The notes: generated by a model from the sequence alone, not told the origin. A stretch of 56,411 nucleotides of DNA from a bacterium (GCA_041389985.1 JAWKQS010000026.1:1-56411); one strand, 5' to 3'; positions 19,226 through 41,023 are shown, numbered from the stretch's first letter. Program-made: numbers and translations.

Positions 19226-19630
19226 TCAGCTGGCCAGGCGGGCGTAGCTGCGCGCCCGCTGCACCATGGCGGCGAAGCCGTTGCGGCGGTTGAGGCTGAG
19301 GTGCCGATCGAGGCCGAGGCGCGTGAACAGCGCCTCCACGTCGGTGGCCAGCACCTCGGCCGGTGTGCGCGCCTGGAGGGCGACGAGCAGGACGGCGATG
19401 AGGCCCCGGACGATTCGTGCGTCGCTATCCGCCTGAATCTGAAGGCGATTCTCCGCATCGAGGTCGGCCACGAGCCAGACCTGGCTCATGCAGCCGACCA
19501 CCAGGTTCGCCGGCACCTTGATCCCCTCGGGCAGCGTGGGGAGCGCGTCGCCCAGCTCGATCAGGTAGGCGTAGCGGTCTTCCCAGTCGTCGAAGAACTC
19601 GAAGTTCTCCACCAGCTCGTCGATGGTCAT
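19226..19630 (-). CDS. sufE: SufE-family sulfur acceptor protein.
   Basis: MTIDELVENFEFFDDWEDRYAYLIELG... and the conserved LVVGCMSQVWLVA Cys motif. The ORF-track start at 19660 is probably an over-extension. Confidence 0.8.
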   Translation of the reverse strand: MTIDELVENFEFFDDWEDRYAYLIELGDALPTLPEGIKVPANLVVGCMSQVWLVADLDAENRLQIQADSDARIVRGLIAVLLVALQARTPAEVLATDVEALFTRLGLDRHLSLNRRNGFAAMVQRARSYARLAS

Positions 19631-19751
19631 GGGGCCCTCCAGTGGCGCGCAGGATGCCATGGCCGACGGCCCCAGGCGAGAGCGTGCAATTCCCTCACGC
19701 TCCGCGCTACCCTACGCCGGATCTGCGCCGAGCTGCGCTCGGGGAGGCTTC

Positions 19752-21025
19752 ATGACCTGGACACGCCGCCGCTTCACCGCCGGCCTCGGCGCCGCGCTCC
19801 TGGCGGGGCCGTTCTGCCGCCTGCTCGGGGGGACGGCGCACGCCCAGGGCGTCGCGCCCCGGCGGCTGCTCACGTTCTTCAGCCCCAACGGCACCATCCA
19901 CCGGCACTGGCGGCCCACGGGCGGTGAGCGCGACTTCGTGCTGCCGCCGGGTTCCATCCTCGAGCCCCTGGGTCCGTGGCGCGATCGCCTGGTCATCGTG
20001 GACGGGCTGGACTTCTTCACCGGCGACAACCACGAGGGTGGCCAGGCCGCCATGCTCACCAACCAGGGGGGCGCCGCGACGCCCACCCGGGGCATGTCCC
20101 TGGACCAGTACGTCGCCAGCCGCATCGGGGCGGATGACCGGTTCTCGTCCCTGGAGCTGGGCGTCCTGACGGACCTGTGGGGCTCGGGGCGGCAGACCCG
20201 CATCAGCTACCGAGGGCCGGGCGAGCTGGTCCACCCCGACGCCGACCCCCGCCGCGCCTTCGACCGCCTCTTCGCCGACCTCGCCGGCGGCCCCGCCGCC
20301 GCCGCCCGACGCCGCGCCCGGCGCCTCAGCGTGCTGGACGTGGCCCGCGCCGAGCTGGCCGACCTGCACCAGCGCGTCGGCCAGCTGGAGCGCCGCAAGC
20401 TGGAGGCCCACCTGGAGGCGCTGCGGGGCGTCGAGCGCGGCCTGGCCGAGGGCGGCGGCGGGTGCGGCGCCCCGACCCCCCCCGACGCGCTGGCTCCGGG
20501 CGACAACGACAACGCCCCCGCCATCCTGGCGGCCCAGCTCGACCTCGCGGTGCTGGCCCTCGCCTGCGGCATGACCCGGGTGGCCACCGTCCAGCTCAGC
20601 CACACCGTCAGCCCGCTGGTGTTCCGGTGGGCGGGCAACAGCGACCAGCACCACTCCCTCAGCCACGCCGACGACAGCCAGGTCGAGGCGGTGGGCCAGT
20701 TCGTGGCCGCCGAGCGCTGGGTGGCGGGCCAGTTCGGTGCGCTGCTCGACCGCCTGGCCGGGACGCCGGATCCGGAGGGCGAGGGGAGCCTGCTCGACAA
20801 CACCGTCGTGCTCTGGGCCAAGGAGATGGGCGACAGCCGCGCCCACGTCTGCCAGTCGGTGCCCTTCGTGCTGGCGGGGGGCGGGCTGCGAGGGGGGCGC
20901 TACCTGCGCTACCCGGGCGAGAGCCACGCGCGGCTGCTGGTCAGCATCTGCCAGCAGCTCGGCCTGGACAACGACACCTTCGGTGACCCGACCACGGGCC
21001 GCGATGCGCTGCCGGGGCTGCTCGC

Positions 21026-21029
<4 letters not shown>
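19752..21029 (+). CDS. DUF1552-family protein with a Tat signal (TRRRFTAGLGAALLAG).
   Basis: RRxF twin-arginine motif. Family-typical length and conserved blocks. The 3' end overlaps the next gene by 4 nt. Confidence 0.75.
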
Positions 21030-22969
<1,940 letters not shown>

Positions 22970-25146: not shown

Positions 25147-26435
25147 TCAGCCGATGTCGATGAAGAGCTGGTTGATGACCTTCTGGAGCTCCTGCTGCTC
25201 GTCGCGCTCCAGCCACTCGCGCGCGGCGAACATCTCGAAGAACAGCAGCTCGTTGAGGGCCTGGGACAGGAAGCTCAGCCGGTTGTCCATCTGGGTGCCG
25301 GCCAGGTTCGCCAGCAGGCGCTCTCGGTCGAGCTTGCCGTCGATGAAGACCACCCCTGGAACAGCTCGACGAAGCCGTAGAACTGCAGGAACGTCTCCAG
25401 ACCCTTCTGGAGCGCCTGCTGCTGGCCGTGCCGGGCGATGGCCTGGTAGATGCGCTCGAACACCGTGTTGAAGGTGTCCACCATCGTGCCGGTTTCGGAG
25501 CCGACGCGATCGTCCTCCACCGACTCCGCCGCGGGCGGCTCGGTGTGCTCGGCCACCAGGTCGACGTGGCCGCTCTGCTTGAGGTGGAACAGGATCTTCA
25601 TGGTCTCGAAGTCGCCGTAGCGACACGCCCGGGAGACCTGCTCCACGGTCCGCGGCTTCTGGAGCATGCGCAGGACGAGCCGCTCGCGGGCGCCCAGCTC
25701 GCTCACATCCGCGTCGGGCCGCGCCACGAGCCGCATGCCATCCTCGGGGATGCGCTCGCGGAAGTACGCCATCTCGTCCATGCGCCGCAGCCCCTCCATG
25801 AGGAGCGACTGGGCGTTGAGGGCCAGCGGCCCTCCCCCGGGATCCCGCGGGTTGCGCGTCAGGTAGAAGTCGCCGTCCTTCATGAGCAGGATCGAGTAGA
25901 AGATCTCTTCGACCTGGCGACGGACGTTCAGATAGAGATCGGCCTGGGTGATCTGGCCGCGATCGAGCAGATGGTTGCCCAGGGGCCGCCGGATCCGACG
26001 GCACTCCTCGGCCGCCCGGTCCAGCACCTCACGCGGCAAAGCCCCGTAACGATAGAGGATTTCCCCCAGCCGATCCTCGGCGCGGTTCGACGTGGCGTTG
26101 CGGACCTGGCCGTCCTTGAACGTCAGCGTCTTGCGGGTGTCGCCCTGCACGAACAGCAGGTTGCCTGACTGCTGGGACGAGTGGACGAAGTTGATGACGT
26201 CCACCGTGGAGCCGAAGCCTGCCACATCGCCCTGCAGCACGATCGGGTGGCGCAGCTCTTCGAGGGGCGGCGTGCCCCCGACCCGCTGGAAGTGCAGCAG
26301 CGAGCTGTCCGACGGCAGGTGCGTGTACACCCCTGCGAGCGCCGCCAGCTCCTGTCGAAGCGCAGCCCCCACCGCGATCATCCGGCCGGCCTCGTCCACC
26401 TGGACGTAGCCCTTCACGTCGTCTCGACGACTCAT
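25147..26435 (-). CDS. DUF4388 (PATAN-domain) protein of about 429 aa. There is one frameshift at a g-run near 25355.
   Basis: N-terminal DUF4388 pattern (...IVLQGDVAGFGSTVDVINFV...NLLFVQGDTRKTLTFKDGQV...). ORFs 25275..26435 and 25147..26004 join at ccagggg|tgg. The ATGA start/stop overlap with the upstream gene is at 26432-26435. Confidence 0.65.
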
Positions 26436-27307
26436 CCCCTCTTCCGGAGACCGAAGAGGCCCTTCTTCTCGGCGGGCCTGCGCTGAAGGTGTCTTAGCTC
26501 GCTTGCCGCCTCAGCGCAATGCGGGTTGATCTCCAACGCGCGCTGCAGGGCGGCCATCGCCTTGTCGGTGTTGTCCATCAGGCGGTGGACGCGGCCCAGG
26601 TACAAGAACGGCTCCTCGCGGCCACCATCGCTTCCCATGGCCTGGGTGACCTCGGTCATGAGCTGGGCCGTCTTGGCGGCCATCGTCAGGGAGGGGCCGC
26701 GCGCCCACACGATGAGCAGCTCGGCGTAGGCCAGCCCGGCCCGGGCCACGGGGTCGTCCGGCGTCGCCTTCAGGGCCTCTTGGAACCGATCACGAGCCGC
26801 CTCGGGGTTGCCGGCCTTGATGATGGCGACAGCCTCCTTGACCAGCTTCTCGGCGCGGAACACCTGGCCCAGATCCGCGCCGCCCGCCTCGTTCACCACG
26901 CCGCCGGCCCGCGCCCGCATCACCTGCTCGGCGTCGTAGTCCTTGCGGGCCGCGGCGTCGCTGAGGACCTCGTTGGCGCGGTTGATGGCGATGAAGACCC
27001 GCTGCACCGCCTCCAGATCCGTCGGCGGGAGGTCGTACCGGGCGAACCGATCGGCGTGGAACTCGCGGGCAAGTGCCCGGAATGCATTGCGAATTTCCTC
27101 AGACGTCGCGGTCTTGGCGACCCCGAGGACCTCGTAGTGCGTCTTGGTCTCCAGGCCCTCGAGGCGCTGGTGGACCTCGCGGACGCGGGCCACGACGCGC
27201 TCGTCCGGGGCCTTCTTGGAGTTGGCGTCGGAAGGCGGCCGGCTGGGCGCCCGCGCTCCCACCTCGGTGCCGCGGGCGGGCGTCGCGGGCGCGACGGCGC
27301 GGCGCAC
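26432..27307 (-). CDS. J-domain (DnaJ-like) protein with TPR-like C-terminal repeats. It may be the C-terminal part of a longer DUF4388-J fusion (see next feature).
   Basis: J-domain HYEVLGVAKTATSEEIRNAFRALAREFHADR, then helical TPR-like repeats. Confidence 0.7.
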   Translation of the reverse strand: MRRAVAPATPARGTEVGARAPSRPPSDANSKKAPDERVVARVREVHQRLEGLETKTHYEVLGVAKTATSEEIRNAFRALAREFHADRFARYDLPPTDLEAVQRVFIAINRANEVLSDAAARKDYDAEQVMRARAGGVVNEAGGADLGQVFRAEKLVKEAVAIIKAGNPEAARDRFQEALKATPDDPVARAGLAYAELLIVWARGPSLTMAAKTAQLMTEVTQAMGSDGGREEPFLYLGRVHRLMDNTDKAMAALQRALEINPHCAEAASELRHLQRRPAEKKGLFGLRKRG

Positions 27308-28268
27308 CGGGGGCGCCGGGCGGCGGCGGCGGCGCGGCCCGCCGGACGCCGGACGTCGGCCCGGCCGGAGGCGGTGCGGCAGCGGGCGGAGCGCTCGTGC
27401 GGCTCACGAAGACCGGCGGCGCGGCGCCCGGCCCCACCGACGGGCGCCGGGTGGCCGTCCCCGCGACGTTGGCCGGCCGGGCCACGCGGCGGACCGACAC
27501 GGTGCTGGGTCGCGGCGGCTCCGACGCCTCTGGCGGTCGGCCCTCCTCCGGGGCCTTGCTCACGTTGGACTGAAACCGCGCCATGCCGGACAGCACCAGC
27601 ACCGCCACCTCGCGGGCCGCCAGATCGCGGTTGCCCCGCACCCGCGCGATGAGCTCGAAGGGCGTGGGCGCCTCGAGCATGGAGCGGGTGTTCGGCGTCG
27701 GGAAGAGCTGGTCGAAGCGCGCCGCGTGGTGGGTGGCGAAGTCGGTCGGGGCCACGAGCTGCCGCGCGTACTTCGCCACGAACTCGGTGGCCGCCGGCCC
27801 CTTGATGTAGCGCCCCGCGGCCTCGACGAGCAGATCCACCAGGTCGATGCCCTGGGCGCCCTGATCGGGGCGGATGACCTGGTCCTCGAACTGGTAGAGC
27901 CCGTCCGTCCAGCCAAAGGGCTCCAGGAGCAGGTGCCGCGCCACCCGGCGCTGGATGGCGGCCAGGCGCTTCGGGGCGACGAGGCCCATGCGCACCACCA
28001 TGAGATCGATGGGCGTCCGGGTGGTCTGGGCCTGCTGGCGCAGCTCCACCTCCTCCGTCGAGGAGATCAGGCCCTCGTCGACCAGCGCATAGACAAGGCC
28101 ATCCTGGCGCTGGTTGGAGGCCGTCCGCACGGGATAGCCGTTGGCGATCTCGGCCCGCTTGATCACGTTGCCGGCCTGGAGCGTCAGCACGCCGCTCATG
28201 CGACGCTCGAGAATGCTCCGGAACACCATGAAGAGCCGCAGGTGCTCCAGCTTTCCCCGGATCGCCAT
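27099..28268 (-). CDS. Second DUF4388 (PATAN) domain protein with a long Pro/Ala-rich linker. The 3' boundary is uncertain. The ORF overlaps the J-domain ORF by about 200 bp in another frame, so a single DUF4388-linker-J-TPR protein with one frameshift is plausible.
   Basis: N-terminus MAIRGKLEHLRLFMVFRSILERRMSGVLTLQAGNVIKRAEI.... The C-terminal third is pure P/A/R/G and overlaps the 27307 start. Confidence 0.5.
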   Translation of the reverse strand: MAIRGKLEHLRLFMVFRSILERRMSGVLTLQAGNVIKRAEIANGYPVRTASNQRQDGLVYALVDEGLISSTEEVELRQQAQTTRTPIDLMVVRMGLVAPKRLAAIQRRVARHLLLEPFGWTDGLYQFEDQVIRPDQGAQGIDLVDLLVEAAGRYIKGPAATEFVAKYARQLVAPTDFATHHAARFDQLFPTPNTRSMLEAPTPFELIARVRGNRDLAAREVAVLVLSGMARFQSNVSKAPEEGRPPEASEPPRPSTVSVRRVARPANVAGTATRRPSVGPGAAPPVFVSRTSAPPAAAPPPAGPTSGVRRAAPPPPPGAPGAPRRRARDARPRHRGGSAGAQPAAFRRQLQEGPGRARRGPRPRGPPAPRGPGDQDALRGPRGRQDRDV

Positions 28269-28375: not shown

Positions 28376-29539
28376 CTACTCCGAGGCGAGCGCCGCGAGG
28401 TGCCAGGCCGCCGCCTTGTGGAGGGCCACGACCTCACCGTGCAGCACCTGCTTCCAGAGCTGCTCGGCGCGCTCGGCGTCGCCCTCGATCTCGGCGATGA
28501 GCGCGTCGCGCTGCCAGGCCCACTCGGGCTCGTAGAAGTGCATGTTCAGGCGCGTCAAGCGGTTCTGGTCGCGCTCCCAGCCATCGATCATGGCGTCGAC
28601 GGCCTCGTCGTACCGGCCGGTCAGGTCGTGCAGGGCGGCCAGGCCCATGTAGCCCCAGGCCCCCTCCGGCTGGGTGTCGATGGCCTGGCGATAGAGATCA
28701 CCCGCGCCCCGGTAGGCCCCCTGGAGCTGGAGCAGCTCCGCCAGGTTCGAGAGCGCGACGCTCTCGCTGTACGGCCGGGCGGCGGGGGCGTCGAGGATGG
28801 CCTCGAAGAAGCCGGCCGCGCCGTCGAGATCGCGCCGCAGGTAGTGGATGTTGCCGAGGTTGTTCAGCGCCACGGGCTCGGCGGGATCGGCGGCCAGCAC
28901 CTCGCGGTACAGGTCCTCCGCGTCGTCGAGCTCCTGAGCCTGCAGGTGGACGTAGGCGAGCGCCAGCCGGCCCTCAAGGCGGTCGGGGGCGCGCTTCATC
29001 AGGTCGCGGGCCACCTGCTCGGCCGTGGTGAAGTCGCCGGCCAGGGTGGCCAGCTCGGACTGGTAGGCCAGGAGGGCCCGGACCCGATCTTCAGCGCCCG
29101 CGTCGCGATCGAGCACGCCGATCAGGCGATCCGCCGCCTCGGCCGCCGTGGCGAAGTCGCCCGACTCCACCGAGCCCCGCAGGACGCGCTCCAGCAAGAG
29201 GCGGTCGTCCCCTGCCCGCTTGAGCCCCTCGCGCCAGGCCGCCATGGCCGCCTCGGGCTGATCGAGGGTGAAGCGCAGGTCGCCGACCATGCGCCAGAGC
29301 GAGGGATCCTGGGGTTCCTGGCGGGTGGCCGCCTCGAAGGCCACGAGGGCCGCGGCCCGGTCGCCCTGCCGAAGCCGGGTGAAGCCTTCCACGCGGTGGG
29401 CCAGATCCGGCGCCTGCCGGACCATCTCGATGCGCTTCGCGGAGGGCTGCGCCCCCTTGAAGCCCGGCGCGGCCTGGGCCTGGCCGACCCAGAGTCCGCC
29501 CGCGGCCAGCGCGATGAGCCAGCGGTTCCTGCGTGCCAT
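28376..29539 (-). CDS. Secreted TPR-repeat protein.
   Basis: ATG at 29539 with a perfect RBS GAGGAGGA. Signal MARRNRWLIALAAGGLWVGQAQA. TPR-like repeats follow. The ORF-track start at 29824 is an over-extension. Confidence 0.75.
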   Translation of the reverse strand: MARRNRWLIALAAGGLWVGQAQAAPGFKGAQPSAKRIEMVRQAPDLAHRVEGFTRLRQGDRAAALVAFEAATRQEPQDPSLWRMVGDLRFTLDQPEAAMAAWREGLKRAGDDRLLLERVLRGSVESGDFATAAEAADRLIGVLDRDAGAEDRVRALLAYQSELATLAGDFTTAEQVARDLMKRAPDRLEGRLALAYVHLQAQELDDAEDLYREVLAADPAEPVALNNLGNIHYLRRDLDGAAGFFEAILDAPAARPYSESVALSNLAELLQLQGAYRGAGDLYRQAIDTQPEGAWGYMGLAALHDLTGRYDEAVDAMIDGWERDQNRLTRLNMHFYEPEWAWQRDALIAEIEGDAERAEQLWKQVLHGEVVALHKAAAWHLAALASE

Positions 29540-29726: not shown

Positions 29727-31261
29727 CTAGGGCAACCTGTTGTTCTCGCTGACTTTTTCTCCCACGTCGCGCCCATCGCCGGCCCCCGCAAGCTCGCCAC
29801 CGAACAGCGCCACGAGGGCCGCATCGAGGGCGGGGCGCAGGGATCGCGCTGCGCTGAAGGTCGCCGCGCTGCGGGCCCGCTGGCGGCGGTGGCGGCCGGC
29901 CAGCGTCAAGCGCGCCTCGGCGCCGGCGACTTGCAGCCAGACCGTCCCGGGCGGCAGCCGGGTGGGCGCGACCCGCGGGCTGAGGACGAGGGTGGGCGGT
30001 CCCGGGAGGGCCGCCTCGGCCGGCAGCAGCTCCAGGCGGACGCGGTGGTGGCGGATCTCGACGCCCAGGCTGGCCCGCAGCAGCACCTCCTCCTCACGGG
30101 CGATCCGCTCGTCGAGGGGCGAGCCGATGCGCCAGTGGAGCGACGAGCTGGCGGCGAGGGCGGAGAACGTCCGAGCGAGATCGGCGTGTAGCGCGAGGTA
30201 GAGGCCCTGGACCAGCACGAGGGTCTGGACCGGCAGCGCGGCCTCCTTCTGGCGCAGGCTCGCCAGATCGTCGATCACCACCGCGACGTGGCGGTGCGCG
30301 TCCAGCAGCGGGCTCTCGTCGCGGGTGTAGTAGAGCAGCTCGCCCACGACATAGCGGATGTCGAAGGCGTCGACCTCCCCGAGGCCCCCTGCCCCACGTA
30401 CGCGACCTCGGAGCGCACCAGGTTCTCGAAGCGCCCCTGGTGGCTGAGGGCGTCGAAGCCGCCGGCCGGGAAGCGGTCGGCCTCCTCGGCCTCGACCGGG
30501 ATCTCGCGGGCGGTGCGGCGGAGGCGCCCCGCCACGGTGGCCTGGATGGGGCCGAGGCGCGCGGCGACGCCATGGAGCTGCCGGAGGGCCAGGCGCTGGG
30601 ACTCGCTGTGCAACTCCGCGAAGTGATTGAGTTCCCACAGATCTTCGGGCCCGAAGAGGGGGCCCGGACCGAGGGCCTCGATGGCGGCGCCGTGGACGTC
30701 GGCGGCCAGGCTCAGCCACTCGGCGTCCTGGGGTGACCACTCGTCGAACCGGCTCGGCGTCTCGGCGACGACCTTCCCGCCCAGACTGCGCACATGGGCG
30801 GCGTTGCCGGTGAGCCGCAGCCGGGCCTGGAGCAGCCGATCGGAGAGCGCCAGCCGGATGGCATGGGCGACGAAGACCTCGCGGCGATCGGGCGGGACCC
30901 CGCCGAGGGCCACCTGGGCGGCGTCGACGCTGCCATCCAGCAGCCAGCGGCCCAGCACGCGCTCCTCATAGCCCAGGCGGGCGGCCTGCTCCTGGGGCGG
31001 CCAGTCCGCCAGGTCGCGGCCGGAGGCCAGCCGGAAGGCGTGGCCCTGCACGAGCAGCACGCCGAGGTCGTGGACCAGGGTCAGGGGGACGTGCTCGTCC
31101 CCTGCCCCCCAGATCTCGGCCAGCCAGCCGAGCGCGTCGGGCGCCGTGGCGTGCCAGTCCGCCGCCGCCCCCGACCAGTACAGGCTCGCCGCCAGCGCCG
31201 GGACGAGGCGGTCGCGCCCGAGGGGGTGCTCCTCGACCGCCGGCTCGTCGAGCTCAGCCAT
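29727..31261 (-). CDS. Hypothetical protein of about 511 aa encoded directly downstream of the RavA-like ATPase, where a ViaA/VWA-type partner would be expected. No confident domain call. There is one frameshift near 30390 at a g/c run.
   Basis: ORFs 30275..31261 (MAELDEPAVEEH...) and 29727..30740 join at ...VGQG|EVDAFDIRYVVGELLYYTRDE. The start overlaps the ATPase stop by 8 nt. Confidence 0.55.
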
Positions 31262-32246
31262 CGAGGCCCAGCAGGCTGTTGACCTTCTCCTCGACGATGG
31301 TCAACTCGGTGCGGCGATTGCCGATGTAGCGCAGGACCCGCAGGTCGCCGGCCTGGACGGCACCGCCGTGGTGGAGGAACGCGCGGGCGCGGATGAGCTT
31401 GTAGATCTTCACCGCCTTGCGGTCGCTCACGTACACCTGGTCTTCGGTCTCGAGCACCCGGACGATGCGGCGCAGCTCGGCGAAGACCGCGGGGGGGAAC
31501 CACCGGGCGTGGTCGCCGGCGCGCCCGGACGCCGCGAAGTGCAGGTCCAGGTAGCGCTTGAGCTTGAGGAAGTCCGTGAAGCTCGCCGGGCCATCGGCCC
31601 ACGGGCGCTGGCCCAGGTTGCGGTTGGCCTCCGTGCGCATCCCGGCCTCGATGAGGGCGTCGAAGTGGCGCTCCTTGACGGGGCGCGTCTCGACCTTGAG
31701 GACGAAGCGATCCGAGAGCGCCACCAGCTCGCTCTGCTCGGGGATGTCATTGGTGGCGGCGAAGAGCAGCCGCAGGTTCACGGGCTCGGGGGCGCCGTCC
31801 TGGTAGAACTTCCGCTCGTTGACGATGGTGAGGAGCGTGTTGAGGATGGCGCTGTTGCTCTTGAAGATCTCGTCGAGGAACACCACCCGCGCCTCGGGCA
31901 GCATGCCGCGCGTGCGCCGACGAAAGCGCCCCTCCTTCAGCAGCGCGATGTCGATGGGCCCAAGGATTTCGCTGGGTTCGGTGAACTTCGTGAGCATGTA
32001 CTCGAAGTAGTCCTCGGCCCCGAGGCCCAGGCTCTCGACGAACTTCAGCACCAGATCGCTCTTGGCGGTGCCCGGTGGACCGGCGAACAGGAGGGGCTCC
32101 TGGGTCGCCGCCGCCAGCAGCATCAGGTCGGCCTCTGCCTCTCGCCCGACGAAGAACCCCGCCAGGAACCGGCCATGCTGGAGGATCCGGTGGCGGACGT
32201 CGTCGATCTCTTCGTCCAGGGCCTCGAAGGTCCAGTCCTCGGCCAT
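31254..32246 (-). CDS. MoxR-family AAA+ ATPase, RavA-like.
   Basis: Walker A LLFAGPPGTAKS. Walker B VVFLDEIFK. The region is alignable by eye to E. coli RavA (FEYLMTRF..., ILNTLLT.INER.F...RLL.AA.N). The start ATG overlaps the upstream stop (TGATG). The first 230 aa of ORF 31254..32936 are an out-of-frame extension. Confidence 0.85.
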   Translation of the reverse strand: MAEDWTFEALDEEIDDVRHRILQHGRFLAGFFVGREAEADLMLLAAATQEPLLFAGPPGTAKSDLVLKFVESLGLGAEDYFEYMLTKFTEPSEILGPIDIALLKEGRFRRRTRGMLPEARVVFLDEIFKSNSAILNTLLTIVNERKFYQDGAPEPVNLRLLFAATNDIPEQSELVALSDRFVLKVETRPVKERHFDALIEAGMRTEANRNLGQRPWADGPASFTDFLKLKRYLDLHFAASGRAGDHARWFPPAVFAELRRIVRVLETEDQVYVSDRKAVKIYKLIRARAFLHHGGAVQAGDLRVLRYIGNRRTELTIVEEKVNSLLGLDG

Positions 32247-35200
32247 CAGCGCGCGCTCCTCCAGTCCGACACGATGCGGCGCCGCACCGCCTGCTCCTCC
32301 GCCTCCAGCCACAGCCGAAGCCGCCCGCCGCCATGGGCGCGGGTGTCGGCGAGGGCGTCCACGACGCGCTCGACCAGCAGGAACCGGTGCAGGCGGAAGT
32401 ACCGCTGCGTGGTGAAGTTGTCTCGAAAAACCTCTAGAGATTCCAATGCCTTGCCCCCCGCGATCTCGCGCGCCGAGACCGGCCACGCGCGCAGGGTGCC
32501 AAACAGCACGCTCGCCCCCTCGAACCGGGCGATGGGGTCGAGGTGCGGGCCGTAGAGCGACTCCTCGATCTCGGCCAGGGTGCGCTCGGCGGCCGGGTGA
32601 TCCCCCAGCAGGCGGAAGCCGTCGGCGACGAAGACCGCCACCTTCGTCGCCTCGCGGTGGCCGCGGCGGGCGACGTCGCGCAGCGAGAGCAGGAAGCGCT
32701 CGGCCTCGCCGCCCAGGCCGATGCGCCGCAGGGCCGCCATGGCCGGCTCGACCGCGCGCAGGATCTCGGCGATGGACTCCATCTCGGGGAGCTGCTGCAC
32801 GAAGAGCTCGATGAGGCCGTGGACGCTGGCCTCGTCCTCCAGCAGCGCCGCCGCCCGCAGGATGGAGCCGATGGCGGCGGCGCGGTGGCCGGGGATGTGC
32901 AGCCGCTCCAGCGTGGTGAAGGCGGCGTCCCGGCACTCGGCGATGAGGCCGTCGCGGCCCGTGCCGAGGGCCAGAGTCAAGGCGCCGTCCAGCAGATCCG
33001 CCACCAGGTAGTCATGGCCGAAGCCCGGGTCGCGCAGGGCCGCGGGGATGCCCTCGGGGGTCTCGGCCAGGTCTTCGAGGCGGGCGAGGACGCGGCTGTC
33101 CACCCGGCTCGGCGCGGCAGTGCCCTCGGCCAGCCAGACCGACCGCTTGCGCGCGAAGTCGACGGCGGCGCGCTCCCGGGCGCTGAGGCCCTGCACCGCG
33201 TCGGCCACCGCGCGCTGCCAGAGCGTCTCGGCGTCGGCCGAGCCCAGGCACTCGAGGCGGGCGAGGTACAGCCGCAGCAGCGCGCGCCCCGGCGGGTCGA
33301 ACAGGGGCCGCAGCTCCTCGACGTCATGGGCCAGGCTGCGGGCGCGGGCGGCGTCCCCGGCCTGGGCGAAGCCCACCGCGAAGATGGCCCGGTACAGGGT
33401 GGCCTGGAGGTCGAGGTCGTCCAGATCCCCCTCCACCCGCACCCACGCCGCCGCCAGGGCCGCGCGCTGGAGGTCGGAGGCGCTGCCCGGCACAGTGCCG
33501 TCGTCGCCACCCAGGGCCAGGCCGAGCCGGACGAAGCGCGGGGCGTCGAAGGCCTCCCGCAGGCCGTCCATGTTGAGGGCCCCCAGCAGCACCTCCCGGG
33601 CGCGGGTCAGGCCCAGCAGATCGCCCGTGGCGCCGTGCAGGCTGCGCAGCACCAGCCAGGCGAGGCGCCGCGACGCGGTGCAGTGTTGCTGCGCAAACCC
33701 CTGGATCAAAAGGGGTTGCAGGCCATCCATCAGGGCGTCTCGGCCGACGTCGGCGGTGGCAGCGGCGCCCAGGAGCGCCAGCGCGAGGGGCGCGGGCCGC
33801 TCGGCCGTCGCGGTCGTGAGCAGGAAGTCGGGCAGGCCCGCCGCCGAGACGCCGAGGCTGCGCGCGCGGGTGTCGACCAGGGCTGCCAGCGCGGGCATCG
33901 CGGCCGGGAGGTCGGCGGCGTGGAAGGCGGCGGCCTCCAGGCACAGGCCCGCATCATCGGGCTCGCCGAGCTGGTCGAGCAGCCGGCCGAGCTGCAGCCA
34001 GGCCGCAGAATCGGTCAGGCCGCCGGCGGTCACCCGCGCTTGCAGAGGCTCGGCGGCCAGGCGCCAGGCGCGGATCTGATCGGCCTCCGATCCCGCCTCG
34101 GCGACGGGCTCGGCCGCGATCGCCGCAGGCCGGGGTCGACGGGCGGGCGGCGTGCGGACCGGAGGTCGGGGCCGCACCGCCCGCTCCACGGGCCGGATGG
34201 AGCGATCGAGCTGGATGGCGGGCAGCACGAAGACCGCCTCCTCGAGCAGCGCATCCAGGGTGGCCCGGTTGTCGAGGGCCAGGTAGTCGACCAGCTCGCG
34301 GAGGGGCGCCTCGGGAGCGGGGCCGATGCGGAGGATGCGCGGACCGTCGCGGGTGGCCTCGACCAGCACCACCCCGTTCTCGGGGGGCTGGAGCACCGCG
34401 CGCAGGGCCTCCAGGCGCATCGGGGGCATCAGGCGCATCCCGGCCGGCACGAAGATGCGCTCCGCCCCCGCCACCCGGGTGTAGCCGCCGGTGCCCAGCA
34501 GGCCCGAGAGGCGGTCGGCGAGGCCGTCGTCCTCGCTGCCCGCCCGCAGCCGCAGGACGTAGCGGACGCCCGCGTCGCCCTGCATGCGGGCGAGCGTCAC
34601 GGCCCCCAGCCCCTCCAGGGGGGTGGCGTCCAGCAGGGGCAGCAGCGCCGGCAGCTCGTCCGCGCGGATGACCCAGAGGCTGGGCGGACGCGGCCGATCC
34701 AGCTCCAGCCGCAGGTGCACCGTGAAGCGCAGGGGCTCGCCCTCGGCGGCGCGGAGGAGGGCGACCGGGGCCGGCAAGGCGGCGTCGGCGAAATCGAGGA
34801 GGGGCCGCTGATCCCAGACTGCCGGCACGCCCTGCCAGCGGCCGTCGGCGTCGACCAGCGCCCCCGTCCCGGCGGCCGCGAGGCGCGCCGCGGCCGCCGC
34901 CGCGAGGGGGTGCTGCCAGCTCCAGGCCACCCACAGGTTCGAGTCCCGGTAGCGCGCGTAGGCCGTCACCGGCTCGCCGCCATCCCGGGCGCGGAGCAGC
35001 AGGTACAGGGGCGGGTGGGCCAGGCGCAGGGCCAGGACGGGGCCCGCCGGTCCCGCCCACTGCGTCAGCGTGGCGTCCGGGCGGGCCAGCCGCAGCAGCC
35101 GCTCGACGGTGCGGGTGGCCGCTGGGTCGTCGCCGGGCACGATGAAGCAGCCCTCCGCCGGCACCTCGTCATGGCCCGCCGCGAGCGGTCGCAGCGCCTC

Positions 35201-35461
35201 CAGCAAGTGGGTCGACGCCCGCACCTCGCCGGGGAGCCCCGCCTCGGGGGGGAGCTGGACCAGGGGCACGCCGGCGGCGATCGCCTCACTCGCAAAGTCG
35301 AAAAGCTGTTCCGAAACAACGAGATAGGAGCCATCTTCGAAGCCGCTGATCGTCTGCCAGGCGCCCTCGATGAGCGCAGGCCGGCCGCCCATGAGGGCGT
35401 CGAGGTGCGCGAGATCCGCCGGCCCCCCGGCCAGGCGCAGGCCCCAGACCGGCGGCTTCAC
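32246..35461 (-). CDS. Large (1071 aa) cytoplasmic protein: an N-terminal region of about 450 aa of unknown fold, then an alpha-helical repeat (TPR/HEAT-like) scaffold. Function unknown.
   Basis: Single clean ORF with consistent high GC3. The GTG start sits inside the GTGA overlap with the upstream small gene. No signal peptide or TM helix. Confidence 0.7.
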   Translation of the reverse strand: MKPPVWGLRLAGGPADLAHLDALMGGRPALIEGAWQTISGFEDGSYLVVSEQLFDFASEAIAAGVPLVQLPPEAGLPGEVRASTHLLEALRPLAAGHDEVPAEGCFIVPGDDPAATRTVERLLRLARPDATLTQWAGPAGPVLALRLAHPPLYLLLRARDGGEPVTAYARYRDSNLWVAWSWQHPLAAAAAARLAAAGTGALVDADGRWQGVPAVWDQRPLLDFADAALPAPVALLRAAEGEPLRFTVHLRLELDRPRPPSLWVIRADELPALLPLLDATPLEGLGAVTLARMQGDAGVRYVLRLRAGSEDDGLADRLSGLLGTGGYTRVAGAERIFVPAGMRLMPPMRLEALRAVLQPPENGVVLVEATRDGPRILRIGPAPEAPLRELVDYLALDNRATLDALLEEAVFVLPAIQLDRSIRPVERAVRPRPPVRTPPARRPRPAAIAAEPVAEAGSEADQIRAWRLAAEPLQARVTAGGLTDSAAWLQLGRLLDQLGEPDDAGLCLEAAAFHAADLPAAMPALAALVDTRARSLGVSAAGLPDFLLTTATAERPAPLALALLGAAATADVGRDALMDGLQPLLIQGFAQQHCTASRRLAWLVLRSLHGATGDLLGLTRAREVLLGALNMDGLREAFDAPRFVRLGLALGGDDGTVPGSASDLQRAALAAAWVRVEGDLDDLDLQATLYRAIFAVGFAQAGDAARARSLAHDVEELRPLFDPPGRALLRLYLARLECLGSADAETLWQRAVADAVQGLSARERAAVDFARKRSVWLAEGTAAPSRVDSRVLARLEDLAETPEGIPAALRDPGFGHDYLVADLLDGALTLALGTGRDGLIAECRDAAFTTLERLHIPGHRAAAIGSILRAAALLEDEASVHGLIELFVQQLPEMESIAEILRAVEPAMAALRRIGLGGEAERFLLSLRDVARRGHREATKVAVFVADGFRLLGDHPAAERTLAEIEESLYGPHLDPIARFEGASVLFGTLRAWPVSAREIAGGKALESLEVFRDNFTTQRYFRLHRFLLVERVVDALADTRAHGGGRLRLWLEAEEQAVRRRIVSDWRSAR

Positions 35462-35718
35462 CCCTCGCCCACCTTCTGCGCCTCCCGCCCGCCTTCGAGC
35501 GTCCCCACCGGCGTGGCGGCGCCCGCCCGGCCGTCGCGCTCCACCTCGATGGCGTCGGCGAGCGACGCGCGCGGGACGCCCAGCAGCGACTCCACCAGCG
35601 CCCGGTGATCGCGCTCGTGCTCATGGGGCAGCGCGTCATCCTCTGACTCGTAGTGGATGACCAGCACCCGCTCGCCCGTGCGCGGATCGTGGCGCAGCTT
35701 CAGCGTCACCTCAGCCAT
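35458..35718 (-). CDS. Small (86 aa) acidic/His-rich protein wedged between the FtsH-like gene and the 1071-aa gene. Function unknown.
   Basis: MAEVTLKLRHDPRTGERVLVIHYESEDDALPHEHERDHR.... It overlaps neighbours by 8 and 4 nt, so it is operon-embedded. Confidence 0.45.
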   Translation of the reverse strand: MAEVTLKLRHDPRTGERVLVIHYESEDDALPHEHERDHRALVESLLGVPRASLADAIEVERDGRAGAATPVGTLEGGREAQKVGEG

Positions 35719-37798
35719 GATCGCCTCCGAGGGCCCCCCGCAGGGCCGGTCCTTCGAGCACCTTGTGGGTCAGGAGCAGGTCGACCAGCGCCGTGTGCAG
35801 GGCCTGGTGCTGCTGGATGAGGCCGCGGGCCCGGGCGAGCTCCTCGGCGATGAGGGCGTCGATGGCGGCGTCGATGCGGCCGCGGCGGGCGTCGCTCTCA
35901 GGCTCGCCCTCCAGGCTGGCTCGCACGCCCGCGGCCGACATGCCGTAGTCCACCACCATCGAGCGCGCCATGCCGGCGACCTGCTTGAGATCGGCGAACG
36001 CCCCGATGGAGACGTCCCCCAGGACCACCTGCTCGGCCACGTAGCCGCCCAGCCCCACGCAGATCTCGGCGCGCATCTCGGCGCTCGTCACGGCGTAGGG
36101 CCGCGCCCGGGCCGCCCGCAGCACATACCCCAGCGCCCCCTCGAGGTCGGGGGAGATGGAGATGCGCTCGGGGGGCGTGGCCCCCGGCAGCAAGGTCGCG
36201 AGCAGCGCGTGGCCGGCCTCGTGGACGGCGATCACGTGCTCCTCCTGGCTCGACAGCACGACCGGCCGCCGCGACCGGCGCTCCAGGGCCCGATCTACGT
36301 CGTCCGGCGTGAACACCCCGTCGCCGGTGCGCAGGGCCTGGCGCTTCAGCGCGCGGCAGACGGCGTAGAGGTGGTCGCCGGTGTAGGGCAGCCCCTGGCT
36401 GCGATCGGCCAGGCCGTCCGTGCGGCGGACGAGGTGGTCCACCAGCGCGGGGGCCAGGGACAGGCCGAGCTTGCGGTCGTAGATCTCGATGATCGCGCGG
36501 CGATCCGCCGGCTCGGGCGCCGGAATCTCGATCAGGAACTCGAAGCGACCGGGGCGCAGCAGGGCCCCATCCACGGACTCCAGGAAGTTCGTGGTGCCCA
36601 CCACGAAGACCATCTCGTTGCGCCGGAAGCCGTCCATCTCGGTGAGGAGCTGGTTGACCATGGAGTGCTCGACGCCCGAGCCGGAGTAGGTGCCGCGCCG
36701 CTGGGCGAAGGCGTCCAGCTCGTCGAAGACGATGACCGAGGGGGCCGCCGCCCGCGCCTGGCGGAAGATCCGCCGCAGGTTCTGCTCGCTCTCGCCCACC
36801 CACTTGCTCTTGAGCTCCGGGCCGCTCACCACCAGGACGGTAGCGTCCAGGGCCGTGGCCAGGGCCTTGGCGAACCAGGTCTTCCCGGTGCCCGGCGGGC
36901 CATGGAAGATGATGCCGCGGGGCAGCAGGGCCTCGAGCTGCTCGATGTCGTCCACCGCCTCCAGCGCGTCGCGGCGGCGCACCAGGTCGATGATCTCTTC
37001 CCGCAGGCGCTTCTTCACCTCGGGGTAGCCGCCCACGTCCCGGTCCAGATCGACCTGCGGGAGATCGACCCCGTCGGAGGTGGTCTGCTGGCGGATGAGG
37101 CGGTAGATCGAGCTGGCCCGGTCCTGGCCCGGCATGGCCTCGCGCCGCAGGGCGAGCTGGCCCAGGAGCTTGCGGCACCGCACCGGGTTCTGCCCGGAGA
37201 CGTACTTGTAGAGGGCGAAGGGATCAAACGCATCTGCCCGGATTGACAGTGCTTCTCGGCGCGTCACCAGGCGCGGGAGGGCGTCGCGGGGGATGCCGGT
37301 GACGGCGCGCACGGCGCCGAAGACCTGCTCGATCACGCCCGGCAGCGGGAAGCTCGGATCCCGGAAGCCGAGGAGCAGGGCCTCGGGGTTCTCGTAGAGC
37401 AGCGGGATGACCTCGCGGGCCTCGAAGGTCAGGCCGGTGTGGGTGGTCGCGAGGACGTCCAGATGGGGCAGCACCAGCAGCAGCCGCTCCACCGAGCCCC
37501 GGATGGCGTCGGTCAGGTGGGCCAGGGTGTTCTGCAGGCCCGTGCGCCCCGCCTCGTTCTCGTTGCGGGGGCGGCCGTCGATGAGCTGGATGCGCGGCGC
37601 GTCGGGCACCTTGCGCAGGCGGTTGCGCACGGCGAGGTAGAGGTGGAGCGACAGCTCCTTGTCACACTCGACCAGGACGCTGGTGCCCTGCCGCAGGCGG
37701 CCCTCGATGAAGGCGATGTCGTCGGCGCAGGCCGCCTCCACCGCCTGATCGATGGTGACGTCGGTGGGCAGCGACTCGAGGGGGAGCGTGCGGCGCAC
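35711..37798 (-). CDS. FtsH-like AAA+ ATPase fused to an M41 zinc peptidase, but with no transmembrane anchor. It has a roughly 300-aa N-terminal region of unknown function.
   Basis: Walker A GIIFHGPPGTGKT. Walker B VIVFDELDA. Sensor / Arg finger TNFLESVDGALLRPGRFE. HEXXH is HEAGHALL. No hydrophobic helices in the N-terminal 300 aa. Confidence 0.85.
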   Translation of the reverse strand: MRRTLPLESLPTDVTIDQAVEAACADDIAFIEGRLRQGTSVLVECDKELSLHLYLAVRNRLRKVPDAPRIQLIDGRPRNENEAGRTGLQNTLAHLTDAIRGSVERLLLVLPHLDVLATTHTGLTFEAREVIPLLYENPEALLLGFRDPSFPLPGVIEQVFGAVRAVTGIPRDALPRLVTRREALSIRADAFDPFALYKYVSGQNPVRCRKLLGQLALRREAMPGQDRASSIYRLIRQQTTSDGVDLPQVDLDRDVGGYPEVKKRLREEIIDLVRRRDALEAVDDIEQLEALLPRGIIFHGPPGTGKTWFAKALATALDATVLVVSGPELKSKWVGESEQNLRRIFRQARAAAPSVIVFDELDAFAQRRGTYSGSGVEHSMVNQLLTEMDGFRRNEMVFVVGTTNFLESVDGALLRPGRFEFLIEIPAPEPADRRAIIEIYDRKLGLSLAPALVDHLVRRTDGLADRSQGLPYTGDHLYAVCRALKRQALRTGDGVFTPDDVDRALERRSRRPVVLSSQEEHVIAVHEAGHALLATLLPGATPPERISISPDLEGALGYVLRAARARPYAVTSAEMRAEICVGLGGYVAEQVVLGDVSIGAFADLKQVAGMARSMVVDYGMSAAGVRASLEGEPESDARRGRIDAAIDALIAEELARARGLIQQHQALHTALVDLLLTHKVLEGPALRGALGGDHG

Positions 37799-37802
37799 CG
37801 GG

Positions 37803-38345
37803 TCAGACCTTGACCTTGATGGTCAGCTCCAGGCCGCCAGCCTCGTCGGTGCGCTCGTCGATGCTCGTCACCTCGCCCAGGCGGGCCGCCTTCTCTTTCA
37901 GGGCCCGGACGTAGATGCGCTGCACGTGATCGGCGAGGCTCCCCTGCAGGTCGGCCTCCGCCCGGTCGAGCCGCTGGGCCAGCTCCGCGGCCAGCCGCTC
38001 ACGGGCCGCCACCTCGTTGCGCGACAGGGCCTGCTGGGCCTCGACCTGGGTGTCGGCGGTGGCCTGGACCGCCCGGGTCCCCTCGATGCGCAGCTGGACG
38101 CTGCGGCCGTCGGCGGCGAGGCGCGCCTCTGCCCCCCCGGGGAGTTGCCGGACCAGGCCGCCGTCCGCGCTGGGGGACCACCCGTCGTCGCAGAGCGCCT
38201 CACGCAGCAGGGCCACCATCTCGGCCTCGGGCAAGATGGGCAGCAGCTCGACACCCAGCTCCAGGCGATCGGAGGCCGCCACGGTGCCCCGCTCGGTGAC
38301 CCGCGTCACCGCCTCACGCCAGCGAATCCGGTAGCCCCGGCTCAT
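37803..38345 (-). CDS. Hypothetical protein of 180 aa, whose stop overlaps the FtsH-like gene start.
   Basis: Clean ORF MSRGYRIRWREAVTRV...LELTIKVKV*. Confidence 0.5.
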   Translation of the reverse strand: MSRGYRIRWREAVTRVTERGTVAASDRLELGVELLPILPEAEMVALLREALCDDGWSPSADGGLVRQLPGGAEARLAADGRSVQLRIEGTRAVQATADTQVEAQQALSRNEVAARERLAAELAQRLDRAEADLQGSLADHVQRIYVRALKEKAARLGEVTSIDERTDEAGGLELTIKVKV

Positions 38346-38355
38346 GGTGCCCCCC

Positions 38356-39752
38356 TCAGCCGATCACCCCGGCGGCCGTCCGGCGGGCGGCCGCGAGGCT
38401 CGCCGTGACGTCGGGGGGGTGGTGTGCGGCGTAGTCTGCCAGATAGAGCTGCGCCTCGGCATGCTGATCGTCGCCGTAGCGCACCTGCCCCAGGGCGTCG
38501 CGCAGCTCGGCGAGCCGCTCGCCCAGCCCGTAGAGGAGCACCGCGGCGTCCCGCCCCTGGTCCCGTGGGGTGCGCTGGGCCGCGAAGCGCTCCCGCAGGC
38601 GCCCCGGGGGGACGAGCTCCAGCAGCTCCGCCGTGACCACGAGCGCGGAGGTGGCCAGATCCAGGCGCCGCGCCTTCTCCAGGGCCCGCAGCCACTGGTG
38701 CAGCACCGTGGCGACGGAGGCGACGGCGCTGGCCGCCTCGGGCTCCCCCGCCAGCCCCCGCAGGCGGCGACGCCAGGCGGCGACCAGGGGCGCCTGCCAG
38801 CACTCGATCAGCCGCACCGCCCGCGGGGCGAGCAGCCGCGCCAGATCGGCGGGGGTCACGGGCGCCAGGTCCTCCAGCGCCAGCAGGGGCGAGGCAGCCC
38901 GCAGGCGGCTCTGCACCTCGTCGTCGGCGCCGGCCAGCCCCTGGGCCAGCAGGCCGGGCGCGATCTGGCGCACGAAGAGCCAGTCCCCGGGCTCGGTGTC
39001 GCTCACCTGCAGCCAGCGCCGCAGGATCTTGCGCCGCTCCCGCTCCCCCGACCGCTGCACCGCCGGCACCTCGATGACCCCCTGCGTCCACAGCCGGGAG
39101 GTGCCGCTGCCGTAGCTGAGCTGGAAGTCGCCCACGAGGGCGGCATCCCACAGGCGGCCCCGCACCCGCTGGCCGTCGCGCAGGACGGTCCGGGGCAGGT
39201 GGCCGCCGGCCCGCAGCAGAGCGGCGAGGCCCGTGCGGGCGATGAGCCGGCCGCCCGCCTCCAGGACCGACAGGCTGGGCCGCCGCTCCTGCTCCAGGGC
39301 AGCCTGCCCCTCCGCCGTGGAGGTGAACCGCTGGCCGCTCAGCAGCGCCCCCAGGAAGGCCAGGCGCTCGGCGTCGGCGGGGCCGGGCCGGCGAGCGTCG
39401 CCAAGGGCAACCCTCCGACTTCACTGAGGATTCCGGGACCGGGCTCGCCGAGCAGCCGCGTCTGCTGGCCGGCGGGGAAGAGCTCCACGGTGGGCGCCGC
39501 CGCGGCCGGGGCGTGCCCGCGTGCCACCGGCAGGCTCCCGGCCGCGGCCTGGAGCGCCGCCACGGCCGCCTCGTCGGCGGGCAGGAGGACCACCAGGCCA
39601 TCGGCCCCGAGCCGCCGCGCCCGACCCACGAGGGCCGCCGGATCCATGACCTCTCCACCGGATGCCGCGAGCTGGATGGCGAGCTGGCGGCCGCCCCCCG
39701 CCGCCCGGGTGAGCGGGAAGATCGCCCGCACGCGCACGGTCGCCTCGGTCAA
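38356..39752 (-). CDS. Hypothetical protein of about 465 aa. The TTG start overlaps the stop of the upstream beta-propeller gene (TTGA). At least one frameshift lies near 39330-39340.
   Basis: N-terminus MTEATVRVRAIFPLTRAAGGGRQLAIQLAAS... (tail of ORF 39339..40703). Continuation in ORF 38356..39165. Confidence 0.4.
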
Positions 39753-40884: not shown

Positions 40885-41023
40885 GGCGTCTCAAGGTGCG
40901 GGGAGTATAGCCAGGGGCTCTGGTGGACGGAACCGGGTGGACGGAACCGATCGGACCGTTCGAAGAGGTGTTCGGCTTCGGTCGGGGACGCAGTATACTC
41001 CCGCGGTCCTGAGCGGAGGAAGC
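40885..41023. promoter_or_regulatory. Divergent intergenic region that should hold promoters for the minus-strand operon and the plus-strand outer-membrane protein cluster. It contains a tandem direct repeat GGTGGACGGAACCG x2 (40912-40939), bracketed by an 11-bp inverted repeat GGGGAGTATAG / CAGTATACTCCC (about 40889 and about 40990).
   Basis: Repeats read directly from the sequence. The region is flanked by two divergent starts. Confidence 0.4.

Follow-up and report, generated by a model that had tools for sequence, protein, structure and literature searches.

A seven-gene cassette in a Myxococcota-related metagenome-assembled genome, very probably an FtsH ternary system of the simple subtype

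We looked at a stretch of bacterial DNA of 56,411 nucleotides (GCA_041389985.1, JAWKQS010000026.1:1-56411), called the window when its full length is meant, and at a run of co-oriented genes within it. Judged from its sequence, this run is almost certainly an FtsH ternary system of the simple subtype, carried on the chromosome in a metagenome-assembled genome (MAG) related to Myxococcota. The guanine plus cytosine (GC) content of the window is about 74%, and genes were called from third-position GC, open reading frame (ORF) length not being used. Third-position GC plots delimit one minus-strand gene run at 29727-39752, with values of at least 0.9. The ORFs of X5, the FtsH-like protein, the X3-analog and X7 have values of 0.91-0.95, and the gene of the MoxR-type ATPase has 0.88-0.98 in a sliding frame plot. 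The genes are, in transcription order:

38356-39752, minus strand: X6, about 460 residues once repaired, with an fvmX6 domain and an N-terminal extension of about 100 residues
37803-38345, minus strand: X5, 180 residues, fvmX5
35711-37798, minus strand: FtsH-like soluble protease, 695 residues, Pfam AAA and Peptidase_M41
35458-35718, minus strand: X3-analog (X3a), 86 residues, fvmX3-analog
32246-35461, minus strand: X7, 1071 residues, fvmX7 by way of its homologues
31254-32246, minus strand: MoxR-type AAA+ ATPase, 330 residues, bpMoxR
29727-31261, minus strand: degenerate von Willebrand factor A (vWA) protein, 511 residues if one base is restored, ivWA-helical_N and ivWA

The original prediction had described a module of five genes; the cassette comprises seven, with X6 added at its upstream end. 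Its description of overlapping junctions, GTGA among them, was borne out: in transcription order, the genes are separated by gaps of 10 and 4 nucleotides and then overlap by 8, 4 (GTGA), 1 and 8 nucleotides. These overlaps of 1-8 nucleotides suggest co-translation. No transmembrane segment was found in any of the seven proteins, all of which appear to be soluble. A scan for promoters and terminators gave nothing informative at 74% GC.

The FtsH ternary system was defined by comparative genomics as a MoxR ATPase, a highly divergent vWA protein and an FtsH-type protein that has an inactive AAA+ domain followed by a second AAA+ domain (Kaur, Burroughs, Iyer, Aravind, eLife 2020; PMC7159879). In the simple subtype, the vWA domain is joined to a large all-alpha N-terminal domain, and either NEFF1 or a radical-SAM enzyme together with a peptide serves as effector; the vWA may have lost its metal-binding residues, and MoxR has the P-loop variant GxxxTAKS, a type shared with beta-propeller systems (PMC7159879). 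In the window, the MoxR protein belongs to the bpMoxR family (PF20030, 9.2e-59) and has the P-loop GPPGTAKS. The vWA protein, whose gene is frame-broken in the assembly, has the all-alpha N-terminal domain (ivWA-helical_N, PF19996, 1.7e-43) followed by ivWA (PF19997) split over two frames (1.4e-08 and 1.3e-23), and the DxSxS motif is not conserved. The FtsH-type protein has tandem AAA+ domains, the N-terminal copy being inactive and the second active by its motifs. Among the accessory proteins, X5 matches fvmX5 over its full length (PF20003, 1.4e-29), X3a matches fvmX3-analog (PF20002, 5.4e-21) and X6, taken as the stop-to-stop ORF 38356-39420, matches fvmX6 with 30.7 bits, the cutoff being 27. 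Pfam at E <=10 gave no match for the 1071-residue X7 or for residues 1-300 of the FtsH-like protein. X7 was placed through 35 homologues, the best of them 53% identical over 99% of the length; most carry fvmX7 (PF20005), which maps to their N-terminal ~400 residues. Dedicated Pfam families cover six of the seven proteins, and the seventh is homologous to proteins bearing fvmX7, so that a module first taken for uncharacterised, with proteins that could not be placed, has families for nearly all its parts. The type of system is already described, and this locus adds a member.

The FtsH-like protein (Pfam AAA, 2.8e-39; Peptidase_M41, 1.5e-33) is built of a degenerate AAA+ domain D1 (residues 1 to ~285), a classical AAA+ domain D2 (~286-512) and an M41 zinc protease (513-695). 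Its motifs are the Walker A GPPGTGKT at residue 300, the pore loop KWVGESE, the Walker B VFDELD, a second region of homology with RPGRF, and HEAGH at residue 526. The D2 motifs, including the arginine fingers, and HEAGH are invariant in orthologues. No hydrophobic segment was detected in it, the maximal 19-residue Kyte-Doolittle value being 1.31, which agrees with the proposal of a full FtsH catalytic cassette devoid of a membrane anchor. The N-terminal ~300 residues had been considered novel. However, a model of residues 1-290 made with AlphaFold2 (AF2) has a predicted local distance difference test score (pLDDT) of 86.8, and its best Foldseek matches are p97, Rix7, Vps4, TRIP13 and katanin (E 3e-6 to 1e-4). 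The N-terminus is read as an AAA+ fold without a P-loop because of this AF2 and Foldseek result and not of an hhalign comparison of the N-domain with the protein's own AAA domain, which gave a probability of 0.34%, though in register at Walker B, and was not relied on. As modelled, the protein is a type-II, p97-like AAA+ protein in which D1 is dead, D2 is live and the protease is fused on. Homologues of ~490-507 residues without M41 outside the myxobacteria were considered as a variant form and rejected: an M41 ORF directly follows in L035 and L036 (the L numbers denote related loci), and since the protein ends are scattered and the tails out of frame, the short forms are assembly frameshifts.

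Like canonical FtsH, the protein has a classical AAA+ domain followed by an M41 domain with HEXXH, and its residues 253-690 are covered by the alignment to solved FtsH (E 3e-59). Unlike canonical FtsH, it has neither transmembrane helices nor a periplasmic domain, a further, degenerate AAA+ domain stands at its N-terminus, its pore loop is Cdc48/Vps4-like, and its score for the FtsH_fam equivalog (TIGR01241) is 261.7 bits, below the cutoff of 600. The sequence of its AAA module is as close to D2 of VAT/p97 as to FtsH. The likeness to p97, Cdc48 and VAT extends to the tandem AAA+ arrangement, to D2, for which VAT and p97 are the best PDB sequence matches (E ~1e-81 to 1e-87), and to the D1 model, which matches the folds of p97, Rix7 and Vps4. 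In contrast with these proteins, the P-loop of D1 is lost (ECDKE), as is its Walker B (DGRP), an N-terminal double-psi barrel is absent, and the protease is covalently fused.

The MoxR protein has its P-loop at residue 56 and the Walker B VVFLDE, and also matches Pfam AAA_5 and AAA_lid_8. It had been placed in the RavA clade. This holds insofar as RavA is the nearest solved or named relative over the AAA core (E 3.6e-37, residues 37-193 only), but the family is bpMoxR, and the score is 148.5 bits for the RavA equivalog NF010054, whose cutoff is 681, over profile positions 17-191 of 498 only. The gene downstream, thought to occupy the place of a vWA partner, does match Pfam ivWA. In an alignment of 20 vWA orthologues that includes the composite of the window, the DxSxS motif of the metal ion-dependent adhesion site (MIDAS) is not conserved. 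As in RavA-ViaA of E. coli, a gene for a MoxR-clade ATPase is followed by a vWA gene. The ATPase is, however, shorter than RavA (330 against 498 residues) and matches chain residues 27-183 of RavA, with no match in the C-terminal part (LARA); the vWA protein has a different N-domain, and the operon counts seven genes.

X7 had been described as a helical protein, which is right for its C-terminal ~610 residues and not for residues 1-390. Its model (pLDDT 80.7) shows an alpha/beta fvmX7 region (~1-390), a disordered linker rich in Pro, Arg and Ala (392-456) and an alpha-solenoid resembling tetratricopeptide repeats (TPR; 459-1071). The X7 family is not rare: at E <=1e-10 its profile retrieves 1076 representative clusters.

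Among the smaller proteins, X3a is acidic, as had been noted (isoelectric point 5.1; 18 D+E against 11 K+R). Across 29 orthologues it has a conserved N-terminal module of 47 residues (35578-35718) with an invariant HEHExxHR and a nearly invariant start, MAE.T, followed by a variable C-terminal tail; the N-terminal module may serve in metal binding or recognition. Conservation of X5 extends over 22 loci; its N-terminus has an invariant MSRxYR and its C-terminus an IKV. X6 starts with a TTG (39752) that overlaps the TGA stop of the upstream lipoprotein gene and ends (38356-38380), across all orthologues, in a conserved G[RV][IL]G-COOH preceded by (F/Y)GDxR(Y/H)xE(A/S)Q.

The history of X6 seems to be tied to that of a radical-SAM enzyme. 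Of the Myxococcota loci, 13 have a PflA/NrdG-like radical-SAM gene immediately upstream of X6, and so do two further contigs that were reached by way of the FtsH N-domain. This gene encodes 190-205 residues in most of them and matches Fer4_12, and the proteins of the 13 Myxococcota loci have the signature GPGxRxxxWVQGCPLRCxGCCNPE. There is no radical-SAM gene beside the cassette in L006, L001 and L005. In the clade formed by these three loci and the window, X6 is about 100 residues longer at its N-terminus than elsewhere, and in an alignment with the radical-SAM family this extension corresponds to the N-terminal half, a 17-residue gap removing exactly the Cys loop. The hhalign score of the extension against the radical-SAM family is 29.9 (E 4.4e-4), while 200 column-shuffled controls average 12.1 (standard deviation 1.9) and reach at most 17.9. 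We read this as a radical-SAM partner that was fused to X6 and inactivated in the clade of the window. One idea suggested by the arrangement in most relatives is that X6 is there the substrate of the PflA/NrdG-like activase.

To what extent the cassette is shared was seen from related genomes. Look-ups of X7 homologues gave the same gene order in metagenomic and Nannocystis contigs. A scan with the X7 alignment, one genome per species, gave 28 loci, all with Myxococcota or Deltaproteobacteria labels, including six Nannocystis species, Polyangiales and Bradymonadia. When related loci were searched by tblastn with the proteins of the window, the order X6-X5-FtsH-X3a-X7-MoxR-ivWA was found in ~25 of 33, which come from Nannocystis species, Polyangiales, Bradymonadia and further Myxococcota MAGs, and it is also that of the two further contigs reached through the FtsH N-domain, whose FtsH-like proteins are similar to ones with planctomycete labels; other homologues of this N-domain are labelled Gemmataceae or Planctomycetia. 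Identity to the Nannocystis locus L002 is 65-68% for FtsH and MoxR, 46-49% for the two ivWA parts and 31-44% for X6, X7 and X5. This faster divergence of X7, X5, X6 and ivWA than of the ATPases fits fast-evolving binding components.

Variants of the cassette were also observed. X7-MoxR-ivWA is kept without detectable upstream FtsH, X5 and X6 in L004, L008, L010, L017 and L022 (some Polyangiales/Nannocystaceae). In L004 (4653-15523), three co-oriented proteins of 736, 690 and 350 residues, without Pfam match, stand in place of FtsH, X5 and X6, and this trio may be an alternative third component. L003 (9708-13156 and 17572-18816) has a distant pair of X3-analog and X7 (28% identity) with no adjacent MoxR, vWA or FtsH gene, and a Radical_SAM/SPASM gene about 4 kb away from it. 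The operon is interrupted in L014 (4907-7043), L015 (659-6778), L021 (12638-14734), L029 (14361-17817) and L036 (17092-19248). The insertion points are the X6/X5 and MoxR/ivWA junctions, and the interrupting genes encode a hybrid histidine kinase, an AAA ATPase, an alpha/beta hydrolase and, between MoxR and ivWA, a Tex-like protein. The inserted genes, found in some Nannocystaceae, were considered as hidden effectors and rejected, being unrelated and mostly on the opposite strand.

Compared with the published simple subtype, the window has the same MoxR with GxxxTAKS, a divergent vWA with an all-alpha N-domain and a degenerate MIDAS, an inactive N-terminal AAA+ copy and the same X proteins in the same order, in a Myxococcota lineage. 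It differs in having no stand-alone radical-SAM or NEFF1 effector gene, in the radical-SAM-like remnant without Cys loop that X6 has in this clade, and in two genes that are frameshifted as assembled. The MoxR-vWA-beta-propeller ternary systems and the Esr pathway of Actinomycetales, for which there is recent experimental support as a threat sensor (bioRxiv 10.64898/2026.09.08.750141), share with it the bpMoxR family, the P-loop variant, a divergent vWA and a proposed logic in which a sensor acts through a MoxR/vWA switch on an output. Unlike these, the system of the window lacks a beta-propeller sensor as well as any kinase, FHA or Esx output, and has instead the tandem-AAA+ M41 protease, X3a, X5, X6 and X7.

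From these elements a mechanism can be proposed. A MoxR hexamer and its vWA co-chaperone would form an ATP-driven switch, with X7 and the helical domain of the vWA protein as binding platform or sensor. The switch would control the assembly of the FtsH-like hexamer or the access and delivery of substrates to it, and this hexamer would unfold proteins through the D2 pore (KWVGESE) and degrade them in the attached M41 chamber. If the fusion and inactivation of the radical-SAM partner is right, the clade of the window would have no functional copy of that enzyme, and the M41 protease would be the only recognisable catalytic output. The biological role would be triggered proteolysis in a conflict or self-sacrifice response, a suggestion drawn from the published comparative genomics only. 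There, the authors proposed a conflict system that deploys an effector inside a large complex with controlled assembly and disassembly (PMC7159879), and the conflict-system reading of the original prediction agrees with this. We hold the mechanism and role tentatively, at somewhat less than an even chance, while the favoured explanation taken whole (identity, mechanism and role) is one we consider likely.

Several findings weigh against this explanation, and they have to be set beside the alternatives. The least probable of these is that a soluble FtsH paralogue and a RavA-ViaA-like pair have come to lie side by side by chance, with large unrelated genes in between. Nothing beyond individual domain similarities speaks for it, and it is contradicted by the seven-gene order in ~25 Myxococcota loci and two distantly related contigs, with overlapping junctions, and by accessory proteins that all belong to families defined by this neighbourhood. 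The synteny decisively upholds the earlier view that the juxtaposition is not fortuitous, and we regard chance adjacency as extremely improbable. A second possibility is that the copy in the window is a decaying pseudogene cluster whose frameshifts are real, the system being non-functional in this organism. As assembled, two of the seven genes are frameshifted, and the copy could be inactive. The vWA gene, earlier taken for a single ORF of 511 residues, is spread over two frames, 30275-31261 in one and 29727-30386 and beyond in the other. The break falls within 30369-30397, in G-runs, in GTGGGGCAGGGGGCCTCGGGGAGGTCGAC; this stretch has 17 nucleotides in the window against 15 (L006) and 21 (L001) in intact relatives. 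X6 has a one-nucleotide break within 39390-39413, the third-position GC switching frame at ~39400, and its orthologue in L006 is a single intact frame. In favour of decay, the vWA break is identical in the independent sibling assembly L034 (GCA_041390005.1), the public record annotates a truncated vWA product of 328 residues (P0305, 100% identical including the out-of-frame tail), and the radical-SAM partner seems already to have degenerated in this clade. However, both breaks are single-base length changes within G/C runs, and past each of them third-position GC stays above 0.9 and protein conservation continues with no stops in the shifted frame. With one base restored, the vWA composite of 511 residues can be aligned over the full length to 19 intact orthologues, which have 429-507 residues. 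Unrelated genes of the window, namely the PatA_N gene (~25356, in the region 25150-28268) and the upstream lipoprotein gene (~40920, within ~40909-40933), also change frame compared with intact orthologues in L001 or L006. L034 is 98.2% identical to the window with 155 gap openings across 21.4 kb, which is typical of uncorrected long-read indel error recurring at the same homopolymers; in it the FtsH-like, vWA and TPR genes are frame-broken and X7 is called as two ORFs. The other five genes of the cassette remain intact; the FtsH and MoxR proteins share 83-92% identity with those of relatives. Because other genes of the window are broken too, L034 has its own indels, the breaks sit in G/C runs and the coding signal continues past them, the vWA and X6 breaks are probably assembly errors, and decay of this copy seems improbable to us. 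The window looks like an indel-prone assembly in which ORF boundaries call for caution. In the PatA_N/DnaJ region, 27283-27435 shifts frame compared with L001, yet L006 itself has two ORFs there.

A more serious contender accepts the same machine and gives it a lineage-specific housekeeping or developmental task, in quality control or complex assembly by regulated proteolysis, rather than one in inter-genomic conflict. The window and L006 are collinear over 23 kb that take in the locus and its flanks, and the corresponding regions of six Nannocystis species are collinear with one another, their nucleotide identity being 83-93%. Because the flanks are collinear across these genomes, the locus is inherited vertically and stably, which is atypical for defence systems. 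It had been asked whether the module is embedded in a defence island, and it is not: its flanks are ordinary chromosomal genes (TPR, PatA_N/DnaJ and PGI), of which the PatA_N/DnaJ and TPR genes are chaperone-like or TPR in kind, with no defence or mobile-element genes. MoxR-vWA pairs and FtsH or p97 act classically in assembly and quality control (PMC7159879, and established knowledge). Scoring of the module with PADLOC-DB v2.0.0, as had been suggested, gave for the FtsH-like protein matches to IetA and TRIP13 by generic AAA only and for MoxR weak sigma-54-type matches only; the other five proteins had no match, and this database has no model for the system. Two further points count against the favoured explanation. 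As to the effectors of the simple subtype, no radical-SAM gene was found in the 56-kb window by tblastn with a Nannocystis protein, and neither it nor NEFF1 was recognised among the neighbours by Pfam, no dedicated NEFF1 model being used. In the literature searched, no experimental study of any FtsH ternary system was found. Against a housekeeping task speak the published phyletic pattern, in which 63 of 79 organisms are multicellular, and the occurrence of the same types of MoxR and vWA in systems whose effectors are caspase, TIR and Ubl ones (PMC7159879). The much faster divergence of X7, X5, X6 and ivWA than of the ATPases argues in the same direction, as do the unrelated insertions and the loss of components that the operon tolerates in relatives, which would be unusual for an essential machine. 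On balance, we consider the housekeeping task less likely than not, yet a serious rival to the conflict role described above. A bolder form of the latter would be that this clade has been rewired into a MoxR/vWA-gated 'immune proteasome' of multicellular bacteria, in which the p97-like AAA+/M41 protease is the sole catalytic output and, once the fast-evolving X7 and vWA sense a trigger, destroys proteins of an invader or of the cell itself, the G[RV][IL]G of X6 and the HEHExxHR of X3a being handles for processing or recognition. This we find doubtful.

Some genes around the cassette deserve mention. Upstream, a minus-strand lipoprotein gene (39749 to ~40900) has a Cys-rich N-terminus, beta-strand repeats and the lipobox LPAAVAC. 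Downstream, a minus-strand TPR gene (28376-29539) has an N-terminus resembling a signal peptide and follows the cassette only in the clade of the window (L001, L005, L006). Both genes appear to encode exported proteins. They were considered as parts of the system and rejected on account of these export signals; in addition, the TPR adjacency is confined to this clade, and what lies upstream of X6 is not the same in L001, L005 and Nannocystis. Elsewhere in the window, 19575-22969 (plus strand) contains a DUF1552 (HXXSHH) gene and a DUF1592/DUF1588/DUF1587/DUF1595 gene with a C-terminal CBM_2. It was in Planctomycetes that the DUF1552 and DUF1592/1588/1587/1595 families were originally defined.

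The FtsH ternary system is one of several MoxR-vWA machines predicted to act in immunity or programmed cell death in multicellular bacteria, and the copy in the window is not a new kind of system. What this analysis adds is that its core is a fixed cassette of seven genes, eight with the radical-SAM enzyme, across distantly related genomes. Structural models add a p97-like D1/D2 arrangement with M41 for the predicted protease, and an alpha/beta region with a TPR solenoid for X7. The radical-SAM enzyme can apparently be lost, leaving a degenerate remnant on X6. Relatives of this locus are found in cultured hosts, among them Nannocystis exedens DSM 71 and N. pusilla.

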